DNA of 64,000 bases from an uncultured Candidatus Saccharibacteria bacterium (GTDB lineage: Bacteria; Patescibacteriota; Minisyncoccia; Phycocordibacterales; PALSA-1337), in NCBI GenBank assembly GCA_964495685.1, contig CAZBVQ010000003.1, positions 4,824 through 68,823 on the forward strand, given 5' to 3'. Below are positions 81-64,000 of the stretch, piece by piece. The stretch's first letter is position 1, and every line of letters starts with the position of its first letter. The translations under genes were made by a program, and so were the position numbers. The notes beneath the pieces were generated by a model. It ran no database searches. It had not been told where the DNA came from and saw nothing but the letters and a program-made list of their open reading frames with translations.

Positions 81-428
81 ATGGCAAAAACATCAGCTAT
101 CATTTTCGGCATCATCTTCGTGGTTGCTGGAATCTGGGGCCTCTTTGCTCAGCCAGCCATCGGCTTCATTGCCGCTGACACATTGAGCAGCATTATTCAC
201 ATTGTTATCGGTCTTATCCTCTTGGTGGTTGCAGGCAAGGAATCAGTCGGCACTACCCTCAAGACGGTCGGTATCATCTATGTGATCTTGGCCATCCTCG
301 GTTTCGTTGGAGCCAACTTCATCGCAGGTGACACGACGACCAATGTGTTCTATCTCATCGTTGGTGTTGTCGTTGCTGTTCTCGGCTTTGCTTCAAAGAA
401 GGGAGTCGCCGCACCGGCACAGATGTAG
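81..428 (+). CDS. small integral membrane protein (DUF4383-like; 3-4 hydrophobic helices)
   Basis: Clean 115-aa ORF with hydrophobic GxxxG-rich helices. A stem-loop terminator (aaagaccactc...gagtggtcttt) follows at ~455-482. Confidence 0.5.
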   Translation: MAKTSAIIFGIIFVVAGIWGLFAQPAIGFIAADTLSSIIHIVIGLILLVVAGKESVGTTLKTVGIIYVILAILGFVGANFIAGDTTTNVFYLIVGVVVAVLGFASKKGVAAPAQM

Positions 429-486
429 TTTTCGTGAGCGACCGCTCAACACAAAGACCACTCCAAGAGAGTGGTCTTTGTGTCAG

Positions 487-505
487 TGTGCGCCCTGAGG
501 GATTC
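487..505. repeat. 19-nt direct repeat of the tRNA-Val 3' end (tgtgcgccctgagggattc); second copy at 648-666 inside the tRNA gene; sense-oriented T-arm fragment at 584-595
   Basis: Exact 19-mer present twice, 161 bp apart. A complementary ttcgaatccctc fragment lies between the copies and could form a 9-bp hairpin with the first copy. Confidence 0.55.
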
Positions 506-649
506 TCGCCTTACAGGCGCGGTACAGGCTTCGTATCGTGCTCACTCTCGCAAGCTCGAGTTCCGCGCGATACACTCAGCCTTTTCGAATCCCTCCCGTG
601 ACGCGCGCAGGCGCGTCACTAGGACGCCCATGCTCACTTCGTTCGCATG

Positions 650-722
650 TGCGCCCTGAGGGATTCGAACCCCCGACCTTCGCTGTGTAAAAGCGCTGCT
701 CTACCAACTGAGCTAAGGGCGC
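650..722 (-). tRNA. tRNA-Val (anticodon UAC)
   Basis: Reverse complement GCGCCCTTAGCTCAGTTGGTAGAGCAGCGCTTTTACACAGCGAAGGTCGGGGGTTCGAATCCCTCAGGGCGCA folds as a cloverleaf. GG in D-loop, TTCGAAT T-loop, anticodon TAC at positions 34-36. CCA is not encoded. Confidence 0.85.
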
Positions 723-765
723 GTCGTTTCTTGTGGACTCTTAGAGATTAGCGTATATTCATGGT

Positions 766-1527
766 ATGAGCAACAAACTTCTCAACATCCCCATCTTGTA
801 CGAGGACGCTGATTGCGTTGTTGTCAACAAACCAGCTGGTCTCATGGTGCACTCGGATGGTCGCGATCCGGGGCCCTTTTTGACTGATTGGATACTCGCG
901 CACTATCCGGATGCGGTATCGGTGGGTGAGCCGGCTCGTGGTCTCGATGGTCATCCGATCGCTCGCCCGGGAATTGTTCACCGCTTGGACCGCGAAACAT
1001 CAGGCGCATTGATTGTAGCAAAGACAGCCGCTGGTCATGCGCATCTCAAACGGCAATTTCAAGATCGTACGGTCGCCAAGAAATATCTGGCATTCGTCTG
1101 GGGTGATATGCAGGAAGAGTTCGGTACCATTACTCGTTCCATTGGTCGTAGTGGTTCTGATTTCCGTAAATGGTCAGCACAACGAGGTGCGCGTGGTGAG
1201 ATGCGTGACGCCGAAACGTATTGGTCCCTCATCGGCAACGGGGAGGCGTTGACTGATACTGGCCGTGAACGATTTGCTCTGGTCGAGGTCGAGCCCAAAA
1301 CAGGGAGGACTCACCAGATTCGTGTGCACATGCTCGCCATCCATCACCCGGTCGTAGGAGATGTCCTCTATGCCCCAAAACGTCCCATGGCGCTTGGTTT
1401 CGAGCGTACCGCGCTCCATGCCCGAGCGGTGACATTTGAGACGTGTGCGGGCAAAAAGGTACATGTAGAGGCACCACTCCCTGACGACTTCCAAGCGGCT
1501 CGTACGCTTCTGGGGCTCAAAACGTAA
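766..1527 (+). CDS. RluA-family pseudouridine synthase
   Basis: Contains the HRLDRETSGALIVAKT catalytic motif (Asp in HRLD) and the N-terminal VVVNKPAGLMVH motif typical of RluA/RluD-type enzymes. 253 aa. Confidence 0.85.
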   Translation: MSNKLLNIPILYEDADCVVVNKPAGLMVHSDGRDPGPFLTDWILAHYPDAVSVGEPARGLDGHPIARPGIVHRLDRETSGALIVAKTAAGHAHLKRQFQDRTVAKKYLAFVWGDMQEEFGTITRSIGRSGSDFRKWSAQRGARGEMRDAETYWSLIGNGEALTDTGRERFALVEVEPKTGRTHQIRVHMLAIHHPVVGDVLYAPKRPMALGFERTALHARAVTFETCAGKKVHVEAPLPDDFQAARTLLGLKT

Positions 1528-2977: not shown

Positions 2978-4561
2978 AGAAAGAATTAGGTGAGCGAAAG
3001 CGGCATTTCGTGCCTCAGCTGTAAGGTATTTCTGTAGTTCCAACCGATGATATTCAGCTTCAAGCTCTGGATAGGCTTTTTCTATTGGAACAAACCAATC
3101 ATTGGCTTTAATGCTCACTATTTTGTCTTTTATTGAAAAGTTCCAACCAAGTGCTGCAAAGATTTCTCGCTTCTTCTCCAAGGTCCCAGAATTAAAGTTT
3201 TCTCGTGCATAGCAGGCAAAGTTAAATGTCTTATCAGTAAGTTCTAACCACTTCTCGGCTCGGTTCTCAGTGTTTCTGAGGTTACTCTTTAGTTTGGTGA
3301 TTTTGTCTTTCAACCCGTCACGCTCTTTTACAAAGGTCTCGTCATCAATTAATTCTCGATAACGCATTTTGGTAAGAGCATCAATCTCTTTTTGAGTTTC
3401 GGCGACTGCTTTATGTTGCGTTTCGTAGACTTTAGTTCGGTCCTCAATCTCTTTATTATTTTCTCTGTTTAAAATCTCAAGTGCCCAGTCTTTAAACTTT
3501 GGCAGGATGGTATATCGTTCAAGTTCGATATCAACCTGATCCTCAAGTTGCTTGAGGGTGACAGGGCTTCTTTGAGTACACTTCGTCCCTTTCTTGCGCC
3601 GAGTGCAATTGTAGTAAACATATTTCTCAAAGGTGTTTGTTTTCTTAACAAACTTTATTTTCTCGCTTGCGGTATACATCGAACCACATTCTTCACAGTA
3701 AATAAGGCCAGTGTAAGCAAATTCGTGGGTTTTTGCTCTAGGTTTACCATTTCGGCCCATAAGAGCCTGGACCCGATCATACTCCTCAAGGCTAATCATG
3801 GGCTTATGGTTGCCCTTATACAGCTTTCCTGACCACTCAAACATGCCGGTGTAGAAGATATTGGTGAACATCTTATAAATCACGCTGCTAGCGAGTTCAC
3901 CGCCACCACCACGCTTTGTTTTTGCTGTTCTAAAACCCCATTTATCATTCGCGATCTTTAAAATCTGTGGAGGAGTATAGTTGCCGGTAAGCATCATGTC
4001 CCACATCTTGCGGACCAAATCAAAACGATCTTTATCCTCGATAATTATGTGCTCAAGTTTGTCATTCAAATATCCGATAGGAGCTCGGGAGGGTAGCCAA
4101 CCTCGATCAGCTTTTCCAACCATTCCACGCATACTGTTTTTCTTAAGATCAATGATGAATTGATTTGCCATTCCACTCTCAACACTAAAAAGGAGAACAT
4201 TATCATCAGGCAGATACTGACGATCAATTGTTTGAATACATTTTAAAACTCCTTGCTGCAACATCCAGCTGAGAGCTCCGCTATCAACTGGGTTTCGAGA
4301 AAGTCGATTGAGTTGCCAACAAAGAATACCGTCAGCTTCACCTCGTTGAATGCGTTTGAGCATATCATCGAAGATTGGTCGGCAATAAGGCTTCTTGGCA
4401 GATTTAGCTTCTGTCAGTACCTCTTTGATAGTGATTCCTAGGCTGTTTGCAAGTTCCTTAAGTCGGTTCACCTGATCGTCGATAGACTGAACCTGCCTGT
4501 CCTCACTTTCAGAGGATTTTCTAGCGTATATGAAGAGTGTTCTTGGTGTAGTTTGGTTCAT
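2966..4561 (-). CDS. large serine recombinase (resolvase catalytic domain + recombinase domain + zinc ribbon)
   Basis: N-terminal LFIYARKSSESEDRQVQSIDDQ (catalytic Ser) and a YCEECGSMY...C zinc ribbon. 531 aa. The stop codon overlaps the 3' acceptor stem of tRNA-His. Confidence 0.9.
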   Translation of the reverse strand: MNQTTPRTLFIYARKSSESEDRQVQSIDDQVNRLKELANSLGITIKEVLTEAKSAKKPYCRPIFDDMLKRIQRGEADGILCWQLNRLSRNPVDSGALSWMLQQGVLKCIQTIDRQYLPDDNVLLFSVESGMANQFIIDLKKNSMRGMVGKADRGWLPSRAPIGYLNDKLEHIIIEDKDRFDLVRKMWDMMLTGNYTPPQILKIANDKWGFRTAKTKRGGGGELASSVIYKMFTNIFYTGMFEWSGKLYKGNHKPMISLEEYDRVQALMGRNGKPRAKTHEFAYTGLIYCEECGSMYTASEKIKFVKKTNTFEKYVYYNCTRRKKGTKCTQRSPVTLKQLEDQVDIELERYTILPKFKDWALEILNRENNKEIEDRTKVYETQHKAVAETQKEIDALTKMRYRELIDDETFVKERDGLKDKITKLKSNLRNTENRAEKWLELTDKTFNFACYARENFNSGTLEKKREIFAALGWNFSIKDKIVSIKANDWFVPIEKAYPELEAEYHRLELQKYLTAEARNAAFAHLILSWGG

Positions 4562-5548: not shown

Positions 5549-5762
5549 CTTGGGTAATTCTTTTGATTAATAAAGGGAGCGTAGATTCTCTATGCTTCTG
5601 AATCTTTTCAAATTGCTCTTTGGTCATTGGCCGATAGATGGCAGACATAAGCCGCACAAGTTTGATACCTTGCTCGTAGGCTTGTTCAGCACTTATTTCT
5701 TTACCGAACTCACTTCGGTAGAGTGCCTGAAACTTTGCAATGTCTGCATCGGTCAGGACCAT
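5478..5762 (-). CDS. hypothetical small protein
   Basis: 94-aa ORF between island genes. No recognisable motif. Confidence 0.35.
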   Translation of the reverse strand: MVLTDADIAKFQALYRSEFGKEISAEQAYEQGIKLVRLMSAIYRPMTKEQFEKIQKHRESTLPLLIKRITQDELETRPQFVEGTQENESNKPLA

Positions 5763-5764
5763 AG

Positions 5765-6037
5765 CTATTCCGAGTAAAGTTTGTTCTTGAGAGCCTTGAT
5801 GCTGTCAAAGAACGACCGAGCTTTGACTTTCAGTTGGTCTGAAAAATATTGATTGGCATATCTATCAATTTCTGCTTCTCGTTTGAATACGAAAAGAGCC
5901 TTGCGAGGATCGTCTCGGTCCAAGCGGATAAGCTTGTAACCCAGGCACATGAGTGCCGCCGATACTCCAAGGTCATAGGTTGTGAACACATCTGGTCCGT
6001 CAGCTTCGGGCTGGGACCAACTCCGTTTTTTAATCAT
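5765..6037 (-). CDS. small hypothetical protein (DUF5659-like)
   Basis: FTTYDLGVSAALMCLGYKLIRLDRDDPRKALFVFK resembles a small conserved family common in phage/mobile contexts. Confidence 0.45.
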   Translation of the reverse strand: MIKKRSWSQPEADGPDVFTTYDLGVSAALMCLGYKLIRLDRDDPRKALFVFKREAEIDRYANQYFSDQLKVKARSFFDSIKALKNKLYSE

Positions 6038-14986: not shown

Positions 14987-15105
14987 GCGAAACCAATAGA
15001 TAAGCGTTCTTTTTCGACCTTTTTTGCCCTATTTCACCCTATTTGCCCTAACGCTAGGCCAGATTAGGCCGAAAAGAGCCGAAAAGAGCCAAAATTACCC
15101 AAGAA

Positions 15106-15196
15106 CTGCTATACTTTGCATGTCAGGAATGTAGATCGTCGCATCATTCCTTTTCTCAAATATAGTTCTAACTTCCTCTACGACGGCACCCCACGC
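15106..15196 (+). repeat. ~90-bp direct repeat, copy A (contains hairpin AGGAATGtagatcgtcgcatCATTCCT)
   Basis: About 85% identical to copy B at 15802-15890. The two copies flank ORF 15236-15799. Confidence 0.7.
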
Positions 15197-15235: not shown

Positions 15236-15799
15236 TTGTGTTATAATTTCATTATGAAAAATTTTTCCACACTTATTTTCCTTTTGACTCTTATAATGTT
15301 GGGTATTTTTGGTTACTTGAAAATATTTAACGAAGCGGGAAACTCATTTAACTATTGGTACATACTAATCTTTGCGGTTGCGTATTTTGTTATTTGGGCA
15401 TGTGTACCTTTGGCTGAAGGGTTGCAAAGGAGGGGACGAATTAGAATGTTCGAAGACATTTCCCACAAATATGGTCTGAAACATGAATTCACTAAACTCC
15501 GATACCTCAATTCTTATGGCGAATTCAACAAACTCTCTGGTACATATAAAAATCATTCCGTTCTTATCAGGGATGTACATGATAAGCCGAAGGCGTGGCA
15601 TGGGGCGACAAGTCAAATACCCATAAAGGGAGTCGCGCTATCTTTTGGTCCACAGAAGACCCTGTACGCAATAGACGGTGAAGAAAAGCGTTTTCCACAG
15701 GAGCTTAATAATCTCAAACAGATATTTGATCCAAAATCAGGATATGCCAGCAAAGAACAGATAGTTACTGCACTTGAAGGATCAGCTTTTTTGTCCTAA
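15236..15799 (+). CDS. hypothetical membrane protein (2 N-terminal TM helices + cytoplasmic domain)
   Basis: 187-aa ORF, AT-rich. Flanked by the 90-bp direct repeats. Confidence 0.5.
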   Translation: MCYNFIMKNFSTLIFLLTLIMLGIFGYLKIFNEAGNSFNYWYILIFAVAYFVIWACVPLAEGLQRRGRIRMFEDISHKYGLKHEFTKLRYLNSYGEFNKLSGTYKNHSVLIRDVHDKPKAWHGATSQIPIKGVALSFGPQKTLYAIDGEEKRFPQELNNLKQIFDPKSGYASKEQIVTALEGSAFLS

Positions 15800-15801
15800 A
15801 A

Positions 15802-15890
15802 CTGCCTACTTTGCATATTAGGAATGTAAATCGTCGCGTCATTCCTTCTCTCGAAAATAGTTCTAACATCCTCTACGGCGGCACCCCACG
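15802..15890 (+). repeat. ~90-bp direct repeat, copy B
   Basis: ctgcctactttgcatattaggaatgtaaatcgtcgcgtcattccttctctcgaaaatagttctaacatcctctacggcggcaccccacg matches copy A. Confidence 0.7.
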
Positions 15891-44177: not shown

Positions 44178-44342
44178 GAGCCCTACAGAGCACTGTGCCG
44201 CGTGGATTCTGCGGAACTCGCCGCACGAACTTGTAAGGTCTTTTGGCATACGGGGCAATAATCTGACCATGCCAAAAGCCCTAACAAGTTCGGCGACTCA
44301 GACAGTCCTCGAATCCACGCGGCACAGTGCTCTGTAGGGCTC
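44178..44342. repeat. 165-bp hairpin/MITE-like element: perfect 32-bp terminal inverted repeats (gagccctacagagcactgtgccgcgtggattc) with nested inner imperfect inverted repeats
   Basis: Begins 1 nt after the peptidase stop and ends 1 nt before the next ORF. The inner cttttggcat/atgccaaaag and cgaacttgt/acaagttcg pairs extend the hairpin. Confidence 0.75.
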
Positions 44343-48333: not shown

Positions 48334-48352
48334 TATTCCGCCACTAAGACAT

Positions 48353-48393
48353 ATCTTCAGCGAATCTTCAGCAGTTCTTCATTATTTCTTCAT
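48353..48393 (+). repeat. 41-bp repeat atcttcagcgaatNttca...ttcttcattatttcttcat (copy 1; copy 2 at 61674-61714)
   Basis: 36/41 identical between two intergenic regions. Both lie upstream of + strand genes (rpsF; the beta-helix/lipase gene). Confidence 0.6.
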
Positions 48394-48568
48394 TGTTACT
48401 TGATACGATGATAGCGCCCTCGGGCACCATGTCCTTCGGGGCACTTCTTGCATGAGGCGTCGATGTGTGGTAATCTGCGCTCATTACAACTAACGCAGTA
48501 TGTCCTTTCTGTCGAAAGGTCCCAGAGTCAGCTATAGGCAAACGATGGGTCACAGACTGCACAATCAC

Positions 48569-51324: not shown

Positions 51325-52449
51325 TTACTGCCCACCCAGCTTGGCACGTATCTCTTTGAGCACATCATTCTTGACCTTCACATTTTCTTTCAAGAACTGT
51401 CTCGTCGCATCATAGCCGCGACCGAGTTTCACGTCACCGAATGAGTAGGAAGATCCTGACTTGGAGAGAATTTCATACTTTTCACCGAGGGCGATGATTT
51501 CTCCTTCTTGGGAAATACCTTCGTTGTACATGAGATCGAACTCTGTTTGCTTGAACGGGGCAGCAACTTTATTCTTGACCACCTTCACGCGTACACGGCC
51601 TCCCATGATTTCTTCACCCTTCTTGATTTGAGCGATGCGGCGGATGTCGAGACGGACTGAGGCGTAGAACTTCAAGGCTTTGCCACCTGGAGTCGTTTCG
51701 GGATTGCCAAACATGACACCGATCTGCATACGGATCTGGTTGATGAAGATGACCACGGTCTTGGACTTGGCGGTTATGGCTGTCATTTTGCGGAGAGCTT
51801 GAGACATGAGTCTTGCTTGTGCGCCGACGTGGTGTGCGCCCATGTCACCCTCGATTTCTGCTCGGGGGGTGAGTGCCGCTACTGAGTCAATAACAATAAC
51901 GTCCATTTTATTGGTACGGACGAGGCTGTCGACTATCTCCAGCGCTTGCTCACCAGTGTCTGGCTGGGAAATAAGGAGGTCCGTCAACTTCACACCGAGC
52001 TTGCCGGCATATTCTGGGTCCATGGCGTGCTCTGCGTCGATGTATGCGCAGACGCCGCCGAGCTTTTGTGCTTCGGCGACAACGTGGAGGGCGAGGGTTG
52101 TTTTGCCGGATGATTCGGGGCCGAATATTTCGATAATACGACCGCGGGGCATACCGCCGATACCGAGTGCCCAGTCGAGACCGAGTGAGCCAGTCGGAAT
52201 GGCATTAACGTTGACCTTCGGCTTGTCGCCGAGCTTCATGATGCTATCTTCACCGAATTTGGTGCGGATGGCGTCGAGTGCGTCAGCGATACCGGCGGCA
52301 GATTTCTTGAGGGGAGCTTTTGTTTCGGATGATTCTTCTTGTAATTCGTTCTCGGTAGAAGGGGATACAGTTTCCTGCTTCTTGACCTTCTTGTCTTTGA
52401 TTGTAGGCATATCGTTATGATTAGCTGATAAATTGTGGTCATGCGACAA
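51325..52449 (-). CDS. recA: recombinase RecA (TTG start in track; alternative ATG at 52410)
   Basis: Walker [14 protein letters not shown]2 loop region, [17 protein letters not shown]. Confidence 0.95.
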
Positions 52450-55646: not shown

Positions 55647-56438
55647 ATGGATAAAAAGGACAGAGAAAATCAGTCACATCAGAACGACGCTTTTAAGTGG
55701 AAAAACTTAGGTTTTTTCTCTGCTGAAGAATATCTTCTGTATATTTTCAAAAAGACAGAAAAAATAACTGCAGGAATTTATCTGGTCTCAGGTCTCCTAA
55801 AAGACGACGAACCAATGAAGTGGGAATTGCGTGATCATGGTATGGAGTTGATGTCATCGTCCTTTATGGCGTCGAGCAATGTTCCTGGAGACAAAAGTGC
55901 TGTCATTCAATCGCTATTCACCTCCGCACTGGAAACAATTTCATTGTTGAATGTTGCCCGTATTTCCAACCTGATTACCGAAATGAATCATGCACTACTC
56001 GTTCGTGAAATCGATAACGTGGTAGGTATGCTCCGCGATCGTCTGGCTGAAAATGCCGAAAATGCAGGATATGTTCTTTCGGAAAATTTCTTTAAGACAC
56101 CAGAATTGTATTCGACAGGATTTCGCCCAGAAAATAATTCTCACACTGCGAGTCAGTTTGATGCTCATAAGGGACATCTCAATGTGTCGAAGTCACAAGG
56201 CTCAAATATCACAAATGTTCCACAAGGACAGCCGACGGTTCAGATGAAGAAGAATAAGCGACAAGAAGCCATATTGAATGTCCTTAAGAATCAGTCCAAT
56301 CTGACTATAAAAGACTTCTCGAGAGTCATAAAAGACTGCAGTGAGAAAACAATTCAGCGTGAATTGATAGAACTCGTAGATCGTGGCATGGTGAGGAAAG
56401 AAGGGGAGAGAAGATGGAGCCGATATTCATTGAAATAG
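55647..56438 (+). CDS. putative transcriptional regulator with C-terminal winged-helix HTH
   Basis: C-terminal LTIKDFSRVIKDCSEKTIQRELIELVDRGMVRKEGERRWSRYSL is DeoR/MarR-like. The N-terminal domain is unknown. Confidence 0.5.
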   Translation: MDKKDRENQSHQNDAFKWKNLGFFSAEEYLLYIFKKTEKITAGIYLVSGLLKDDEPMKWELRDHGMELMSSSFMASSNVPGDKSAVIQSLFTSALETISLLNVARISNLITEMNHALLVREIDNVVGMLRDRLAENAENAGYVLSENFFKTPELYSTGFRPENNSHTASQFDAHKGHLNVSKSQGSNITNVPQGQPTVQMKKNKRQEAILNVLKNQSNLTIKDFSRVIKDCSEKTIQRELIELVDRGMVRKEGERRWSRYSLK

Positions 56439-57024
56439 AGCTTGGATTTGTGTCAAAAAGTCCTTTTTGGGGATCGGTTGTATACTCTATATAGATATGT
56501 CATTTTACCTTGACTTTCCTAGGTATTTTGGCTACTATAGCTCTATTGACCAATAAACCTCGATTCAAGGCCATATTTCTGTAAGAATTAGGGCCTTTCA
56601 TCGTTGCAGTATATGGTCATGTAATATCTAGTTCCAAAGTGAGGTTTTGGGTTGTCCACATAGGATTTGCGAGTGAGGTAGACAGTACGCTATAATGCAA
56701 TGTAACGAGTGTGTAAAGTCTAACTTTATGCATTCGTTCCCAATGCGTTTCAGCACTGGGTCCCGAACTTTGACAACATAACAATAGTCAAATGTTCAAC
56801 CGATCATGCGGTTGGCGTATCTATCTTTTTTATTGAGCAATCAATAATTACAGATCGTGTGTCATCCCGTTTGATCTTTGCTTTGCCACAAAATATAGCG
56901 TCTGCGTGTCGATAGCGTGGGCGGTATATGTGGAAATGTATTATCAAGTTAGTTTACAAAATCGCATTAATCCTCTTCGTCTTATTAGTAATAAAAGAGG
57001 AGTGCGTTAAATTAGAAAATAGAC

Positions 57025-58854
57025 ATGAAAAAGATTCTTATTGCTTCAGGCGTAGCCGTTGTGGCTTTCGCTTCGATTGCAGCAGCTCAGACTTTCTCAA
57101 CCAACCTCACGGTCGGTTCGACTGGTTCTGATGTTGTTGCTCTCCAGACATGGCTCGTTGCTAATGGCTTCGATATTCCGGCTATCAGTGCTGGTACAGC
57201 CAAGGGTTACTTTGGTTCACAGACTCAGGCCGCCGTCAAGAAGTACCAGACCTCAAAGGGTCTTCCTTCTACCGGTTTCGTAGGTCCTCTTACTCGCGGT
57301 GCATTGAATGGTACAGCTTCAGTTGCCTCGGCTCCGGCTTCAGCCGTCTGTCCGGCAGGGTTTACATGCGTACCAGTCGCTGGTGCCCCAGTTACCACTG
57401 CAACTCCTGGTTCTATCACAACCACAGGTGTCGCTGGCACACTCGCTGTCTCCCTCCAGGGTTCACCGTCAGGTGCTTCTCTCGACAAGGGTGAGACAGA
57501 AGATGTTGTCCGCTATAAGCTCCAGGCCGCTGCTTCAGACGAGCAGGTCACGAGTGTGTCTCTTGACTTCGATACTCGCCTCTGGCTCATGGCTGGCTCA
57601 GTCACCATCAAGGATGACTCAGGTGCTGTTGTAGCTCAGAAGACTGGCCTTTCAGCAAGTGATTTCACTGAACTCACCGTTGGAACAAGCTATCGCTTGT
57701 ACGTTCCAGTCAACTACGTTATTCCTCGCGCACAGAGCCGCTACTTTACTGTTAGTGTAACTATGCTCCCGATCTCAGATCGCAGCGCAGCTACAGTAAC
57801 TATCAGTCAGTTCCAGGTTCGTGCTGTTGATGGTACGGGAGTGTCAGACACACAGACTTGTAATTCAAGCTCTTGTGGTTCAACCCGCACCTTCAGCTAC
57901 ACTGGTAGCAACACTGGCTCAATCATCTCGACCTTGAATGCAAATTCACCTCTCAAGAGATTGGTTCAGATCTCGAACTCAACCAAGACCGAAGGTGTCG
58001 TCCTTGCCAAGTACGATCTTAAGTCACAGAACAGAGACGCAACTCTCCGTACCCTCAAGGTCTACGTCAAGACCGATGGTACGAGCGTCAACACTCTCTT
58101 CAGTCGCTTCCAGATCCAGGCAGGAAGTCAGACTTATACTGCTAGCGAGACCAATGTCAGCTCACCGAACACCACAGCTTCTTCAACAGTCACCTTCACT
58201 GACCTCATGATCCCGTTGCAGAAGGATGTGTATACAACGGTTACTGTTCTTGCTGATGTCGCACAGCCGTCTTCAAACGGTGCCCTTGATGGTAAGATGG
58301 CCTCAACTACGATTGTTGCAAATACTGGCAACGTCGCAGCTGAAGATTCAACCTTCAACACAGTCACTGTGAACTCAGTTAGTTTGACTGGTAGCGATGC
58401 AATCTTCTCAGCTAGCGGTGCTATCTTGAGCAACATGACAACCACTCTTGGCTCACCAGTCTTGAGTAACAACGTCACTGTTTCGCAGCCGGTATCCTTC
58501 ACATATACCTTGCAAGCAGGTGACAACACCTTGTACGTTGCCGCTGCCCCGACCACTGCTCTCTCAACGACCAGTACTGGTTATGGTTCAGCCGCAAACG
58601 CTTCAAGTACGCTCACTTCGGTCACTGCGACCCCGAGCGAAGTTTCAGGTGATGCTAGTACCTACTTCGTCGTCCCAGCAGGAGGTTCTCGTACCTTCCG
58701 ATGGAGTGGTCAGGTTCTTAACGATGCTCCTCGCGGAGTTGTCTTGAGAACTTTCTACGTCACAGCTGTCAAGTATGACACTGACACCACCAACCTGAAC
58801 GACAACTCGATCAACTATAACCTCGGCGCCCTCAAGGCTGAGCCAGTTATCTAG
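57025..58854 (+). CDS. secreted surface protein: signal peptide + PG_binding_1 domain + Thr/Ser-rich beta-sandwich repeats (paralog A)
   Basis: GSTGSDVVALQTWLVANGFDIPAISAGTAKGYFGSQTQAAVKKYQTSKGLPSTG is the peptidoglycan-binding domain. Shares a near-identical 614-bp block with 59603-61444. Confidence 0.8.
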   Translation: MKKILIASGVAVVAFASIAAAQTFSTNLTVGSTGSDVVALQTWLVANGFDIPAISAGTAKGYFGSQTQAAVKKYQTSKGLPSTGFVGPLTRGALNGTASVASAPASAVCPAGFTCVPVAGAPVTTATPGSITTTGVAGTLAVSLQGSPSGASLDKGETEDVVRYKLQAAASDEQVTSVSLDFDTRLWLMAGSVTIKDDSGAVVAQKTGLSASDFTELTVGTSYRLYVPVNYVIPRAQSRYFTVSVTMLPISDRSAATVTISQFQVRAVDGTGVSDTQTCNSSSCGSTRTFSYTGSNTGSIISTLNANSPLKRLVQISNSTKTEGVVLAKYDLKSQNRDATLRTLKVYVKTDGTSVNTLFSRFQIQAGSQTYTASETNVSSPNTTASSTVTFTDLMIPLQKDVYTTVTVLADVAQPSSNGALDGKMASTTIVANTGNVAAEDSTFNTVTVNSVSLTGSDAIFSASGAILSNMTTTLGSPVLSNNVTVSQPVSFTYTLQAGDNTLYVAAAPTTALSTTSTGYGSAANASSTLTSVTATPSEVSGDASTYFVVPAGGSRTFRWSGQVLNDAPRGVVLRTFYVTAVKYDTDTTNLNDNSINYNLGALKAEPVI

Positions 58855-58903
58855 TCCATCGTACGAGTAGGTTGCAAGGATTTCGGGAGAAATTTCCGTA
58901 ATC

Positions 58904-58927
58904 TGAACACACAAAAACCGCCTTCGG
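58904..58927 (+). terminator. rho-independent terminator
   Basis: aaaaaccgccttcgggcggttttt. Confidence 0.7.
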
Positions 58928-58972
58928 GCGGTTTTTGTGTTGTCTGACAATTTCGTGATATGATATCTCATC

Positions 58973-59500
58973 ATGAAAAATATTCACCTTTCTGTGTCTA
59001 AAATAATAGCCCTTGTATTTGTTATTGTGTGCATTGTGCTTATTGGGTGGGGAATACGATCTCATAGTAGTCGTAGTATAGTCACTTATATTGATCCCGG
59101 CGCTGGCATCTCGATTAGCCATCCATACTATCTGAAGCTAACTCCTGTCCCTACTGAAGAAAAGGCAATGCTATTCTATTTGGATGCACCAGGTAGTCAT
59201 GCTGCATTTGTCGGATTTATGAAAGACCATGACTATGTGGAACGTGACCGTCGTTTCTATGACGGAGTCTTATTCAAAGAACCCAATCAGACTGTTAATT
59301 CAAGGGTATCTTTTGGAGATTATACGGGCTATAAGGCTGTCGTGGATGTGAATGTGTACCGTTATACACTGTATAGAAATATCAATGCGTCCTCATCTCT
59401 CATTATCCGTTCAGAAATATCAGCATCATCGAGTCCTCAGATGGCCACTCTCGAAAAAGAGTTTATGTCGATGGTATCCAGTATTGGTGTGGACAAATAA
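58973..59500 (+). CDS. TM-anchored hypothetical protein
   Basis: 175-aa ORF between the two paralogs. Confidence 0.5.
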   Translation: MKNIHLSVSKIIALVFVIVCIVLIGWGIRSHSSRSIVTYIDPGAGISISHPYYLKLTPVPTEEKAMLFYLDAPGSHAAFVGFMKDHDYVERDRRFYDGVLFKEPNQTVNSRVSFGDYTGYKAVVDVNVYRYTLYRNINASSSLIIRSEISASSSPQMATLEKEFMSMVSSIGVDK

Positions 59501-59602
59501 TCATCGGGCTTCCATCCGGATCGTGATATACTCTATATAGGTGTGGGCATCGTTTTTATCGAGCTACTTTTTTATCGGAATCGTAATTAATTATATAGAA
59601 TT

Positions 59603-61444
59603 ATGTCACGAATATTTACTAAAATGACCATTAGTTTGGTCGCTGTATGCGCCTTGGCATCGATAGCTTCGGCCCAAAGCTTCACGATCGATCTTGGAGT
59701 TGGTGCAACTGGCACAGAAGTCGTCGCACTTCAGACGGCACTCATTGCTCAAGGATATGACATTCCCGCCATATCTTCTGGCGTGGTATCCAAAGGCACC
59801 TTCGGTAGTCAGACGAGAAATGCCGTCAAGAAGTACCAGACCTCAAAGGGTCTTCCTTCTACCGGTTTCGTAGGTCCTCTTACTCGCGGTGCATTGAATG
59901 GTACAGCTTCAGTTGCCTCGGCTCCGGCTTCAGCCGTCTGTCCGGCAGGGTTTACATGCGTACCAGTCGCTGGTGCCCCAGTTACCACTGCAACTCCTGG
60001 TTCTATCACAACCACAGGTGTCGCTGGCACACTCGCTGTCTCCCTCCAGGGTTCACCGTCAGGTGCTTCTCTCGACAAGGGTGAGACAGAAGATGTTGTC
60101 CGCTATAAGCTCCAGGCCGCTGCTTCAGACGAGCAGGTCACGAGTGTGTCTCTTGACTTCGATACTCGCCTCTGGCTCATGGCTGGCTCAGTCACCATCA
60201 AGGATGACTCAGGTGCTGTTGTAGCTCAGAAGACTGGCCTTTCAGCAAGTGATTTCACTGAACTCACCGTTGGAACAAGCTATCGCTTGTACGTTCCAGT
60301 CAACTACGTTATTCCTCGCGCACAGAGCCGCTACTTTACTGTTAGTGTAACTATGCTCCCGATCTCAGATCGCAGCGCAGCTACAGTAACTATCAGTCAG
60401 TTCCAGGTACGTGCTGTTGATGGTACGGGAGTGTCCAGTACGCAGACGGAGACCGCAGACCGCACGTTTAGTTACACAGGAGGCAACTCGAGTCAGATCG
60501 TGATTACTTTGAACGATCAAGCTCCACCTAATATGTTGGTGCCCATTTCTGGTTCGAGCGATACGGAGAATGTCGTCCTCGGCGTGGCCAATATACGATC
60601 CCAGAATAAGGATGGCGTGATGCGTAAAGTATCGATGTATGTATCGACGAACGGTCTTGCACCCTCTTCAATATTCAATGATATCAAGATCGTGTCAGGA
60701 AACTTGGCCTATTCAGCCGATTCGATTGCCAATGGTAATGCGTATGAATTGACAGTCTTCAGTAACATGGCAATTCCTTTGCCCAAGGATACAAATGTTC
60801 CGGTAGCGATCGTCGCTCGAGTCAAGCCCAATACCAATAACGCTATTAATGGCGCTGCTGCATCCACGACCATAGTTGCATCGGGTACTGCTGGTGGTAC
60901 GAGTAATAATCCAGTTGTCGAGGATGCGTCTGCCAATACGATTGACATTAATGATGCGAACATTGCTACAAGTGACATAACGTTCTCCGAAAGTGATGCC
61001 AACCTGTTCAAAGTCGCTCCTCGAGTCACTTTGGGTGCTCCTATTATCAATAGTAATACTACCGTAGCTCAGCCGGTTACTTTCGAATATACGTTGACTG
61101 CGGGTGCTAATACTCTGTACGTAAGTGCGGTTCCAGCAAGTGCTCTCGCCACTACGAGTACTGGATATGGCTCAGCCGCTAACGCTTCGAGCACGATTAC
61201 ATCAGTAACCGCGACCCCGAGTGATATGTCGGGAGATAGCTCGGGTTCCTACTTCGTTATCCCTGCTGGTGGATCTCGTTCATTTAAATGGACTGGTGTG
61301 ATGAGGTATGACCCGCCACGAGGATCTGTTTTGAGAACGCTCAAGATCACTGGTATCAGATACGGCACTTCGAGTAGTAATTTAACCGCCGAGACAGTAG
61401 TCTATTATGATTATGATTCGCTCAAAGCGGAGACGGTGTTGTAG
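59603..61444 (+). CDS. secreted surface protein with PG_binding_1 domain (paralog B)
   Basis: Same architecture as 57025-58854. The N-terminal 70 aa and C-terminal ~340 aa are diverged; the middle ~205 aa are identical. Confidence 0.8.
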   Translation: MSRIFTKMTISLVAVCALASIASAQSFTIDLGVGATGTEVVALQTALIAQGYDIPAISSGVVSKGTFGSQTRNAVKKYQTSKGLPSTGFVGPLTRGALNGTASVASAPASAVCPAGFTCVPVAGAPVTTATPGSITTTGVAGTLAVSLQGSPSGASLDKGETEDVVRYKLQAAASDEQVTSVSLDFDTRLWLMAGSVTIKDDSGAVVAQKTGLSASDFTELTVGTSYRLYVPVNYVIPRAQSRYFTVSVTMLPISDRSAATVTISQFQVRAVDGTGVSSTQTETADRTFSYTGGNSSQIVITLNDQAPPNMLVPISGSSDTENVVLGVANIRSQNKDGVMRKVSMYVSTNGLAPSSIFNDIKIVSGNLAYSADSIANGNAYELTVFSNMAIPLPKDTNVPVAIVARVKPNTNNAINGAAASTTIVASGTAGGTSNNPVVEDASANTIDINDANIATSDITFSESDANLFKVAPRVTLGAPIINSNTTVAQPVTFEYTLTAGANTLYVSAVPASALATTSTGYGSAANASSTITSVTATPSDMSGDSSGSYFVIPAGGSRSFKWTGVMRYDPPRGSVLRTLKITGIRYGTSSSNLTAETVVYYDYDSLKAETVL

Positions 61445-61487: not shown

Positions 61488-61673
61488 GGTATGTGCGTAT
61501 AGTGCGCTATACTATGTGTGCATGATCAATCCATTCGACCGAAGTTTCTTCAAGTTCCTCATCGGATTCATGGTGATCCTCCTCCTTAGTTTCGGGGTCC
61601 TCTTCCTCGTAGGTCGCTACGGCTCATTCCTGTAATAGGTGGGGTGTCTGACTATACCAGACCACACGAAACA

Positions 61674-61714
61674 ATCTTCAGCGAATGTTCATCGATTCTT
61701 CATTATTTCTTCAT
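61674..61714 (+). repeat. 41-bp repeat copy 2 (see 48353-48393)
   Basis: atcttcagcgaatgttcatcgattcttcattatttcttcat. Confidence 0.6.
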
Positions 61715-61769
61715 CCTTCCTTGCTACGATCTGTGCATTATTGGGTTCGTAACCTCATACATGCACATG

Positions 61770-64000
61770 AAAGATTTCATTCATATACTTATGGCTGGTA
61801 TTACCACCGGCATGATCGCGTTCCTCGGATTCTTGCCGAGTGTACACGCGGAGACGATTATCAATGACGGGTTCCTGCAGGGAGATACGGTGTGGGATGT
61901 TGCTCATAGCCCCTACGTCTTGAATGATGTGGTGACTGTTCCCGCGGGCATTACGCTCACCATCGAGCCTGGTGTCCGAGTCGTGGCTGACCCAGCGTCG
62001 CCCTACGATCCTTACCTGTATGTGAATGGTACGCTTGATGTGGCTGGATCACCGAGTGCCCACGTCAGTATCGGCTCCTTGTTCGGTATCACGGTCGATC
62101 ATGGATATGCCACGCTGTCATACACTGATACCTCGATGAAAGGCACGCTATCATTCATCGGTGCCACGGGCTCTATCGCATCATCGACGATAGATCATGA
62201 TGCTGCGGATACCTCTGATGGCGTATACATTCAAGACAGTTCAGTCCGTATATCTGGCAGTCGCATCGCTCATCACGTGAACGGGGTGGTTGTTCAGGGT
62301 GGCGGAGGAGTATTCCAGGCCATCGGACAGACTCATCTCGCATGGAATAATGACGGCGGTGATGCCGATATAGTGAGTGGACTTATTGCACAGACTCCAG
62401 TCGTATCTATGTCAGTGCAGATTACTGATTCATCGTTGGTCGACAACGTACACACAGCTATTACCAATTATTCCTCGGCTACGGTCGATGCGGACCACAA
62501 TTGGTGGGGGAGTCAGTCGGGACCAAGTGATGCAGAGGCGGCGGCTTCTAATGGCGTTAAAGGATACATATCGTATACACCATGGCTTGATCATGATCCG
62601 ACGGTGCCACAGGTGGCGTCATTGTGTTGTTCGAGCATCTTATTCATTCCTGGACTCGAGGCCAGTCGACTCTATAGGTCCGAGGTCGGTATGTTCGGCA
62701 TAGGGAGTACCACCAATAGACTTTGGGAGCCCAATCGTAATGATGATGTTCGTAAACTCTTCCTCAATACCAATGGTTCGAGTACAGACGCGTCTATTTA
62801 CGTGGGTGGTCCGATCGGTCGTGCGCTCGGGGTCGTCAGTATTTACGGCTCGTTTATGGATATGCTTGATACATTAGTCACCCAAGGGACCATGAATGAG
62901 TGGCGACCGTTCGGTTACGATTGGCGTGCCGCGATCGGCGATGTGGTGACTGGACCGACGAGGCGGGCTACGACGACCGAGCAGCTCATAGACACGGTTA
63001 TCTCCATGGCCGATCATTCCAAGACAGGCAAAGTCACCATTGTGGCCCACAGCAATGGTGGTCTGGTCGCCAAATACCTCGTGAAGACACTTGTCGACAT
63101 GGGTAAGGTAGACATAATCGATTCGGTCATATCGGTGGCAGTGCCGTACCTGGGTACGCCGCAGGCAATTCTAGGGCTTCTTCATGGAGACAATCAGTCT
63201 ATCTTGGGAGGTCTTATTTTGAAACAGAGTGTCGCCAAAGAATGGGGGGTCAACATGCCCAGTGCGTATTCGCTACTGCCATCAGCTACGTATTTCGCAC
63301 GCGCGCTCGGGCCTACGATTGCGTACGCGAGTACCACGGGTGGTGAGGGTATCGATACATCGACAGAGCAGAATTCGTTCATATCTTCTCGCGCCAATGG
63401 TTGGCTCATGACGACGGCCGAAGCGCTCCATGCGATTCTTGACCCATTCGTATGGCCTTCGACTATTGTACGGTGGGCTATTGTCGGGTGGGGGAACCGT
63501 ACGGCCAAAGGGATCGTATATTCTGCCGACGGATACCGTGCTACGACGACTCCGATGGGTGATAGTACTGTGGTCGTGCCGAGTGCTGTGTATGATGCAG
63601 GCACAGTTGCGGCTATCAATTTGCCACAAGAATCAGTGACTGAAGGGAGGGTATATGATCATGCCAATATCCTCGAGTCATCCGCCACGCAATCTGCCAT
63701 TCGAGATATGGTGACAGGCGCTGATACTGACCAGTCGGTACGTACGTTGAGTATTACGGATAAATTGCGACAGATACCCAATCTGACCATTGGCGAACCT
63801 GATTATGAACATGAGAAGACATTCTTGGTGGTGAGCACGCATTCACCCGTCGAACTCCATCTTAGTGACATGAATGGCCGTCACACTGGATTCGCACCTA
63901 TTCCTGCAAGTACCGACGAGGAACTTGAGGATGGATTGTGGAAATATGCTGAGCACGATATTCCTGGAAGTAGTTTCGAGACACACGGCGATGAAGAACA
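61770..64000 (+). CDS. secreted protein, 3'-truncated by the window end: signal peptide + right-handed beta-helix-like region + alpha/beta-hydrolase lipase/esterase domain
   Basis: An open frame runs from the ATG at 61770 to the window end, over 740 aa, and is not in the ORF track because it lacks a stop. MKDFIHILMAGITTGMIAFLGFLPSVHA signal peptide. GxSxG nucleophile motif in TIVAHSNGGLVAKYL. Confidence 0.7.

Follow-up and report, generated by a model that had tools for sequence, protein, structure and literature searches.

Evidence for recurrent gene conversion of a wall-proximal module between ancient tandem paralogues of a putative surface-protein family in Patescibacteria

Introduction

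In Helicobacter pylori, segment 3 of the paralogous genes babA/babB and homA/homB evolves in concert, and the homogenised segment is thought to be structurally constrained (PMC2795765, citing Pride & Blaser 2002 and Santoyo & Romero 2005 for the concerted evolution). These pairs are the closest analogue of the locus described here, which lies on a 64,000-nucleotide stretch of DNA (hereafter the window) from an uncultured Candidatus Saccharibacteria bacterium (GenBank assembly GCA_964495685.1, contig CAZBVQ010000003.1, positions 4,824 to 68,823). Two tandem genes of the window, called gene A and gene B, code for predicted wall-bound proteins with three immunoglobulin-like (Ig-like) domains (Ig1 to Ig3) and share a 614-bp block with a single base difference, embedded in diverged sequence. 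In both systems, paralogous surface genes have one segment that clusters by strain, in H. pylori through intragenomic gene conversion, and another that is type-specific. However, the H. pylori genes occupy dispersed loci, encode outer-membrane beta-barrel proteins and belong to a cultivated pathogen in which conversion was shown experimentally, whereas A and B are tandem genes for wall-bound Ig-like proteins of an uncultured bacterium of the Candidate Phyla Radiation (CPR) that is known from assemblies alone. The position of the homogenised part differs as well, being the N-terminal half here (amino acids (aa) 70-274 of A) and the 3' end in H. pylori.

In Salmonella and Escherichia coli, RecA-dependent non-reciprocal exchange keeps the synonymous sites of tufA and tufB near-identical within a genome, while the orthologues diverge between species. 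The concerted evolution of this pair was reportedly described by Abdulkarim and Hughes in 1996. Genes A and B would have the mechanism in common with the tuf genes, but tufA and tufB are homogenised over their full length and have the same function, while A and B are mosaics in which one module of three or four is affected.

Diversifying gene conversion has been reviewed (PMC3924843). The pilE/pilS and opa systems of Neisseria and vlsE of Borrelia share with A and B non-reciprocal homologous recombination between paralogous surface sequences, but they copy variable segments from silent donors to an expression site, whereas A and B appear to copy a conserved segment between complete genes. Gene conversion at PE/PPE and other antigen loci of Mycobacterium tuberculosis is reported from complete long-read isolate genomes (PMC13061034). 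It likewise concerns interlocus conversion among envelope-protein paralogues that are hard to resolve with short reads, in another family and another organism.

Results

A near-identical block within two diverged genes

Genes A and B are complete open reading frames (ORFs) of the same architecture on the + strand, and each encodes a PG_binding_1 domain (Table 1). Direct comparison of the two block copies over 614 bp gave a single mismatch, corresponding to 99.837% identity by blastn, and the first 300 nucleotides (nt) were 100% identical in a repeat search of the window. Both copies are in frame, that of gene B covering aa 74-278. Outside the block, A and B are 55% identical in nt and 61% in aa over codons 1-69, 50% and 40% over codons 290-490, and 64% and 61% over codons 491-609. 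The longest exact run common to both genes measures 587 nt, while permuting the aligned match/mismatch string 2000 times gave a maximum of 49 (approximate P 1e-86). A third copy of the block was not found in the 64-kb window by blastn self-comparison. The preliminary description of this DNA had named two genes of the same architecture, a 614-bp block with one T/A difference and diverged ends around the block; all of this agrees with our comparison, the block to the base and the ends with 50-64% nt identity of the flanks.

In the following, W denotes the A/B pair of the window, and L and P labels denote the related loci and proteins that were compared. Synonymous divergence (dS, Nei-Gojobori) between A and B of W is 0.01 in the block and either saturated or at least 2.5 in the flanks. 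The block contains 2 synonymous differences in ~165 synonymous sites, one of them in a boundary codon, and the proportion of differing synonymous sites in the flanks is 0.72-0.87. Because the identity reaches synonymous sites and stops abruptly, selection at the protein level is no explanation for it. Extreme purifying selection on the block in both paralogues, without any recombination, would be in line with the strong conservation of the PG-binding domain and Ig1, which are the most conserved parts of the family (column conservation 0.68-0.77), but it would not make the synonymous sites identical too. The relatives considered below further reduce this explanation to a negligible one.

A near-identical direct repeat within a surface-protein gene may also recall a diversity-generating retroelement or another form of templated mutagenesis, with the block copies as template and variable repeat. 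However, the lone difference in 614 bp is a synonymous T/A exchange and there is no adenine-specific substitution cluster. The repeat extends over three structural modules, in contrast to ~100-150 bp at a C-terminal lectin fold, and both copies are coding parts of full-length genes. Judged from these features of the two copies, we regard an origin of this kind as hardly credible.

An old duplication with repeated homogenisation

Four further tandem A/B loci were compared, namely L002 (GCA_023269245.1), L003 (GCA_040384045.1), L004 (GCA_964416985.1) and L086 (a JGI metagenome). The syntenic order is ftsK, a helix-turn-helix (HTH) gene, A, B, an LCAT-like gene and rplJ/rplL. The loci also hold a small ORF, which either separates A from B or follows B; L086 has two extra genes between A and B. 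Locus L001, an ENA scaffold (WANG18-1, SAMN08389277), matches the window with 100% identity over 17 kb and represents the same assembly, hence it is not independent evidence. A contig scan of genomes yielded 80 loci, mostly with one family member each. The tandem A/B pairs in it were confined to the closest relatives, and in three genomes the copies are located on different contigs. When metagenome contigs were scanned with protein B for more tandem pairs, one distant single-gene contig (L090) was the only result. Contig L091, which encodes the B-type protein P0031, begins 350 nt upstream of B and hence holds no sequence of an A partner.

In Ig2, A-type orthologues are 65-83% identical in aa, and B-type orthologues (P0018, P0035, P0037, P0031 and P0025) 59-75%, or 59-77% when the hybrid protein P0015 is included. 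Ig2 of A and Ig2 of B, in turn, are ~40% identical in every genome. In a neighbour-joining tree of Ig2 (aa 290-470, codon alignment), all five A sequences were split from all five B sequences with 100% bootstrap support. Judged from these comparisons, A and B form an old pair, which is syntenic in related Paceibacteria/'Taylorbacteria' metagenome-assembled genomes. The neighbour-joining tree of the block core (aa 143-266) grouped the sequences by genome: W_A with W_B, L002_A with L002_B and L003_A with L003_B with 100% bootstrap support each, and L086_A with L086_B with 97%. The aa identity of the block within a genome is 100% in W, 100% in L002 and 94-100% in L003, but 84% between W and L002. 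Block dS within the genome is 0 in both L002 and L003, whereas it amounts to 0.85-0.9 between W and L002 and to at least 1.8 between W and L003 or L004.

The tracts of high identity in W, L002, L003 and a further pair, L008/L011, have different lengths and different ends (Table 1). Because the blocks have diverged between genomes and the tract ends differ, the identity arose after the lineages had split and separately in each of them. Loci L004 and L086 have no recent tract; their A and B genes are 58-68% identical in nt over the whole block and 63-72% in the Ig1 core, which indicates that block identity is not obligate in the family. Purifying selection without recombination would thus have to coexist with unconverted pairs of such low identity, and with a dS of 0.85-0.9 and a protein difference of 16% between the block of W and that of its closest relative. 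The divergence between genomes likewise speaks against strong nucleotide-level selection, such as on an RNA element embedded in the block. In L004, the longest stretch of raised A/B similarity is Ig1 with 65-80% nt identity per 20-codon window, while a shorter island in Ig3 reaches 85%. The preliminary description had proposed recent recombination or gene conversion between surface paralogues, and the comparison with the other tandem pairs goes beyond this in demonstrating concerted evolution.

Two smaller patches of identity were seen in L002. A separate 57-bp tract (3126-3182 vs 5721-5777), in which A and B are 100% identical amid diverged surroundings, spans 4 nt upstream of the ATG and the first 53 nt of the genes, which encode the signal peptide; it looks like a micro-conversion tract. 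A further identical A/B patch is located in Ig3 of L002, at the region equivalent to the weaker similarity island of the window.

Direction and mechanism

Taken together, recurrent interlocus gene conversion by homologous recombination between ancient tandem paralogues, probably of the RecA type and most likely from A to B, is in our view a highly probable explanation of the block. Concerning direction, the blocks are nearer to L004_A than to L004_B in nt identity (W 71 vs 65%, L002 70 vs 64%, L003 77 vs 66%), and the L003 pair groups with L004_A (72% bootstrap). The cysteine (Cys) linker motif CxxxxxC is missing in the five closest B-type proteins of other contigs (P0025, P0031, P0035, P0037 and P0039), whereas W_B and L002_B carry it and have tracts that cover the linker; in P0037 the tract begins after the linker. 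Because the blocks are nearer to L004_A and the A-type linker occurs in W_B and L002_B, we infer with moderate confidence that A donated the block to B.

We propose that a 614-bp tract was recently copied in a non-reciprocal manner, most probably from A into B; it comprises the C-terminal part of the PG-binding domain together with the Cys linker and Ig1. Strand exchange would begin and extend only where the similarity of A and B suffices, so that tracts would stop at the Ig1/Ig2 junction. The right tract ends are indeed found at aa 274-290, which is the Ig1/Ig2 junction of the structural model; past this junction, indels separate the two types and nt identity is ~50%. Each conversion would reset identity and thereby ease the next one, whereas conversions erasing the type-specific distal domains may be unable to extend or may be selected against. 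Related lineages have had their proximal module overwritten in independent events, so that it evolves in concert within a genome, while Ig2 and Ig3 continue to diverge as two types. As recA is encoded in the window, 5 kb upstream of gene A, the genome has the strand-exchange protein needed for gene conversion.

Several points weigh against this explanation or limit it. All sequences are short-read metagenome assemblies in which bubble-popping could hide differences, so that the true identity is perhaps somewhat lower than 99.8%. The mismatches retained in W, L002 and L003 are all located at most 30 nt from a tract edge, which fits either patchy heteroduplex repair or k-mers that were unable to phase internal variants. 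Neither non-reciprocity nor RecA dependence can be revealed by one end-state genome, and the direction is based on small differences in identity together with a single indel character. Correct binning is a precondition for the L008/L011 pair. Finally, homogeneity may be selected for or may simply be tolerated.

In its strongest form, the objection would be that the repeat is an assembly artefact, with one gene only and strain alleles stitched in tandem, or with similar segments collapsed to a consensus. The window is indeed a short-read metagenome scaffold, its sole mismatch lies 27 nt from the tract edge and thus in k-mer reach of unique sequence, and a hybrid A/B gene on a contig of 2.2x coverage (L085, see below) suggests that such loci can be mis-resolved. 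However, the A-B tandem with unique flanks recurs in four other assemblies from different projects, which at the level of assemblies indirectly supports two physical copies, and three genomes each have their own block sequence and different tract ends. A two-copy direct repeat (X-R-Y-R-Z) has one Eulerian path and should not yield a spurious gene with 1.2 kb of unique 3' sequence. The L008/L011 pair retains 14 mismatches at 96% identity, which bubble-popping would remove, and bubble-popping adds a few percent at most and cannot make identity out of flanks with 50-65%. We therefore consider an artefact very unlikely.

Architecture of the A and B proteins

PG_binding_1 (PF01471) was recognised at aa 33-94 of A with 56.9 bits and at aa 36-98 of B with 51.6 bits (gathering cut-off 23). 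Protein A starts with a Sec signal peptide (aa 1-22), followed by the PG_binding_1 domain (aa 28-95) and a disordered linker with the sequence CPAGFTC (aa 96-130). An AlphaFold2 model of gene A, calculated with 117 family members as input (mean pLDDT 88.2), shows three Ig-like beta-sandwich domains at about aa 131-282, 285-475 and 476-609; the PG-binding domain is helical and the linker is of low confidence. By these domain limits, the right side of the block covers Ig1 almost exactly. Protein B has the architecture of A, but its domains 2 and 3 are type-specific.

Foldseek searches of the PDB with the model of A returned generic matches to tandem Ig-like proteins (integrin legs, a mastigoneme protein, Gram-positive pilins and Fabs) with low TM-scores. 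A sortase-anchored Gram-positive pilin or adhesin was rejected as a candidate, since the TM-scores to pilins were just 0.11-0.22 and a C-terminal sorting signal is lacking. The C-termini (...LKAEPVI in A and ...LKAETVL in B) have no LPXTG with a hydrophobic tail, and the only LPSTG string is found at about aa 80, within the PG-binding domain. In Pfam, NCBIfam and PDB-sequence profile searches, the PG-binding domain alone was recognised and the beta-sandwich part gave no match; in the PDB, the family profile matched solely the PG-binding modules of structurally solved wall hydrolases and of proteins from the L,D-transpeptidase family. No catalytic domain was detected in A or B with Pfam and NCBIfam. 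The combination of a signal peptide, a wall-binding module and a modelled Ig-like stalk leads us to infer that the A and B proteins are secreted and held non-covalently on the cell wall, probably with the Ig-like domains pointing outward.

The family comprises more than 400 homologues of ~600 aa, each of which carries PF01471 as its sole Pfam domain. Where the sources are named, they are Patescibacteria, Paceibacterota or 'Candidatus Taylorbacteria'. Column conservation across the 117 family members decreases from 0.77 in the PG-binding domain to 0.68 in Ig1, 0.54 in Ig2 and 0.46 in Ig3.

Hybrids, strain mosaics and the question of variation

A single hybrid gene, encoding P0015, was found directly after the HTH gene on contig L085 (positions 1-2967; ENA ERZ25038328 NODE_10717). 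The upstream region, N-terminus and block of P0015 are A-type, while Ig2 and Ig3 are B-type. Such a gene is either the product of a loop-skipping assembler or a real unequal crossover product, and the warning of an assembly hazard at the repeat, raised in the preliminary description, is therefore reasonable.

In a related lineage, two alleles of one locus from the sister JGI samples 3300045312 and 3300045315 (L088 4440-6269 and L092 651-2492) share 97% identity as far as about gene nt 1385. Past this point they have different Ig3 domains (40-64% aa identity), followed by 88%-identical DNA downstream. Read at the level of sequence, this pair shows strain-level recombinational mosaicism of the distal domain.

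Cassette-type antigenic variation as in pilE/pilS or vlsE was rejected as a candidate. The 64-kb window has two full-length copies, each with a start codon and a signal peptide, and the exchanged segment consists of the most conserved beta-sandwich and part of the wall-binding domain.

The preliminary description had suggested a possible variation mechanism for an exposed protein, with relevance for an epibiotic lifestyle, a link that is speculative. In a wider sense, this would be programmed or selected variation, with recombination at the block reshuffling or toggling the distal domains via hybrids, copy number or phase-like switching. The A-5'/block/B-3' structure of the L085 hybrid directly after the HTH gene is what unequal crossover predicts, and the different Ig3 domains of L088 and L092 point to an exchange of distal domains between strains. 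However, the hybrid has a coverage of 2.2x and is maybe an assembler shortcut, and the Ig3 swap resembles ordinary allelic recombination and not a paralogue-driven process. What W, L002 and L003 exchange is the conserved, wall-proximal module (0.68-0.77 vs 0.46-0.54 in the distal domains), and the result is homogenisation, which makes A and B alike and not different. The distal two thirds are type-specific in every genome examined, strictly A- or B-type across five genomes, and the window holds just two full-length, expressed-looking genes without silent cassettes. The suggestion of a variation mechanism is not supported by what the window shows. The L085 hybrid and the Ig3 swap leave some room for a weaker version of it, but we regard programmed variation as unlikely.

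A related idea appears somewhat less remote but is still doubtful. Proteins A and B might co-assemble via their identical proximal module into a mixed wall-anchored array with two alternative distal tips. Gene conversion would then co-evolve the interface, and unequal crossover would give hybrid states, such as the one in L085, as well as expanded states.

The locus and its neighbours

The genes and elements around the A/B pair are listed in Table 1 together with the tracts. The HTH gene is located immediately 5' of gene A in every syntenic locus and possibly encodes a regulator. It is followed by an unusually long non-coding stretch (56439-57024); Rfam and tRNA scans gave no match in or near the locus, including this stretch. 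The hairpin after gene A looks like an intrinsic terminator; this function is putative and the consensus scan did not list the hairpin. A terminator-like hairpin at this position points to separate transcription of A and B. In the consensus promoter/terminator scan, counts were no higher than in shuffled sequences. The 13-nt motif ATACTCTATATAG occurs exactly twice in the window (0 expected), at 56482-56494, which is 44 nt past the HTH gene and 543 nt upstream of A, and at 59528-59540, 75 nt upstream of B. It was not found in the locus of any relative and may represent either a promoter or operator element or a chance occurrence.

Homologues of the small ORF between A and B, whose product is probably membrane-anchored, are encoded in L002 (5210-5602), L003 (4367-4897), L004 (9806-10342) and L091 (2196-2738), with E values from 1e-9 to 1e-22. 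In L002, as in the window, the small ORF separates A from B, whereas in L003, L004 and L091 it follows B; from this shift we conclude that the locus was rearranged. For the tiny ORF downstream of gene B, gene calls in L003, L004 and L086 include homologues of 49-55 aa, and its sequence can also be recognised in L002. The LCAT-like protein carries an AHSNGG motif; its gene follows the A/B pair in every syntenic locus and may belong to the same envelope-related gene cluster as A and B.

Other repeats of the window are a 92-bp direct repeat (88%) at 15104-15195 and 15800-15890, which brackets an ORF (15236-15799), a 165-bp palindromic stretch (80%) at 44178-44342 between two ORFs, and a 68-bp intergenic similarity (84%) between 48342-48409, upstream of rpsF, and 61665-61730, upstream of the LCAT-like gene.

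Table 1 Features of the A/B locus, in window positions, and tracts of high A/B identity in the compared pairs, in positions of the A-type gene.
Feature	Position	Strand	Description
recA	51325-52410	-	Pfam RecA_N/RecA_C on L001 4301-5386, offset +47024
HTH protein gene	55647-56438	+	263 aa; C-terminal winged-helix/DeoR-like; weak Pfam HTH_DeoR match below cut-off
Non-coding stretch	56439-57024		586 bp; between HTH gene and gene A
Gene A	57025-58854	+	609 aa; ORF; Pfam PF01471 E 2e-15; probable block donor
Block copy 1	57232-57845	+	Gene A codons 70-274; PG-binding domain (last third), Cys linker, Ig1
Sole difference within the block	57819 (T) vs 60409 (A)	+	GTT/GTA, both Val; synonymous third position; 27 nt from the right tract end
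Second, weaker similarity island	58557-58692 vs 61141-61279	+	Domain 3; 77% nt identity; without conversion in this genome
Hairpin after gene A	58902-58947	+	AAAAACCGCC TTCG GGCGGTTTTTG; inverted repeat
Small ORF	58973-59500	+	175 aa; N-terminal hydrophobic segment; between A and B; without Pfam or NCBIfam match
Gene B	59603-61444	+	613 aa; ORF; Pfam PF01471 E 1e-13; ancient paralogue, probable block acceptor
Block copy 2	59822-60435	+	Gene B codons 74-278; presumed converted tract
Tiny conserved ORF	61522-61635	+	37 aa, MINPFDRSFF (MINPFDRSFFKFLIGF...); one hydrophobic helix; between gene B and LCAT-like gene
LCAT-like gene, 5' part	61767-64000	+	928-aa secreted protein (alpha/beta-hydrolase); PF02450 on L001 gene call; runs past the window end
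W tract	A-type gene nt 208-821		614 bp, 1 mismatch
L002 tract	A-type gene nt 190-869		680 bp, 3 mismatches
L003 tract	A-type gene nt 381-840		460 bp, 1 mismatch
L008/L011 tract	A-type gene nt 427-797		371 bp, 96.2% identical, 14 mismatches; one metagenome-assembled genome (JBBQVG), different contigs

Discussion

Concerted evolution by gene conversion is a known process, and the case described here is clean but ordinary in this respect; it is well documented and comes from an unusual group of organisms and an uncharacterised family. Our comparison documents concerted evolution, most probably driven by homologous recombination, in Patescibacteria (CPR), whose genomes are very small and contain few paralogues. 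In the literature searched, no relevant paper on gene conversion in CPR/Patescibacteria was found.

The mosaic structure of the genes has practical consequences. Phylogenies or orthology calls that are based on the whole length of A/B family members mislead, and metagenome-assembled genomes from short reads may collapse, break or hybridise at the A/B locus.

The A and B genes also define an uncharacterised and widespread surface-protein family of the Paceibacteria, with PG_binding_1 and three Ig-like domains and with a conserved locus near ftsK/recA and rplJL. The A/B family is probably a major surface protein of these bacteria. An identical proximal module may in itself be of advantage, for instance if both proteins use it as a common interface for assembly or for contact with the wall. 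If co-assembly and unequal crossover did occur as outlined above, CPR cells would have a simple means of switching their main surface protein by recombination. Independent of this, the family follows a modular logic, with a conserved, homogenised wall-proximal module on the one side and diverging distal modules on the other, and this pattern of conservation hints at which parts of the proteins probably face the environment or the host.

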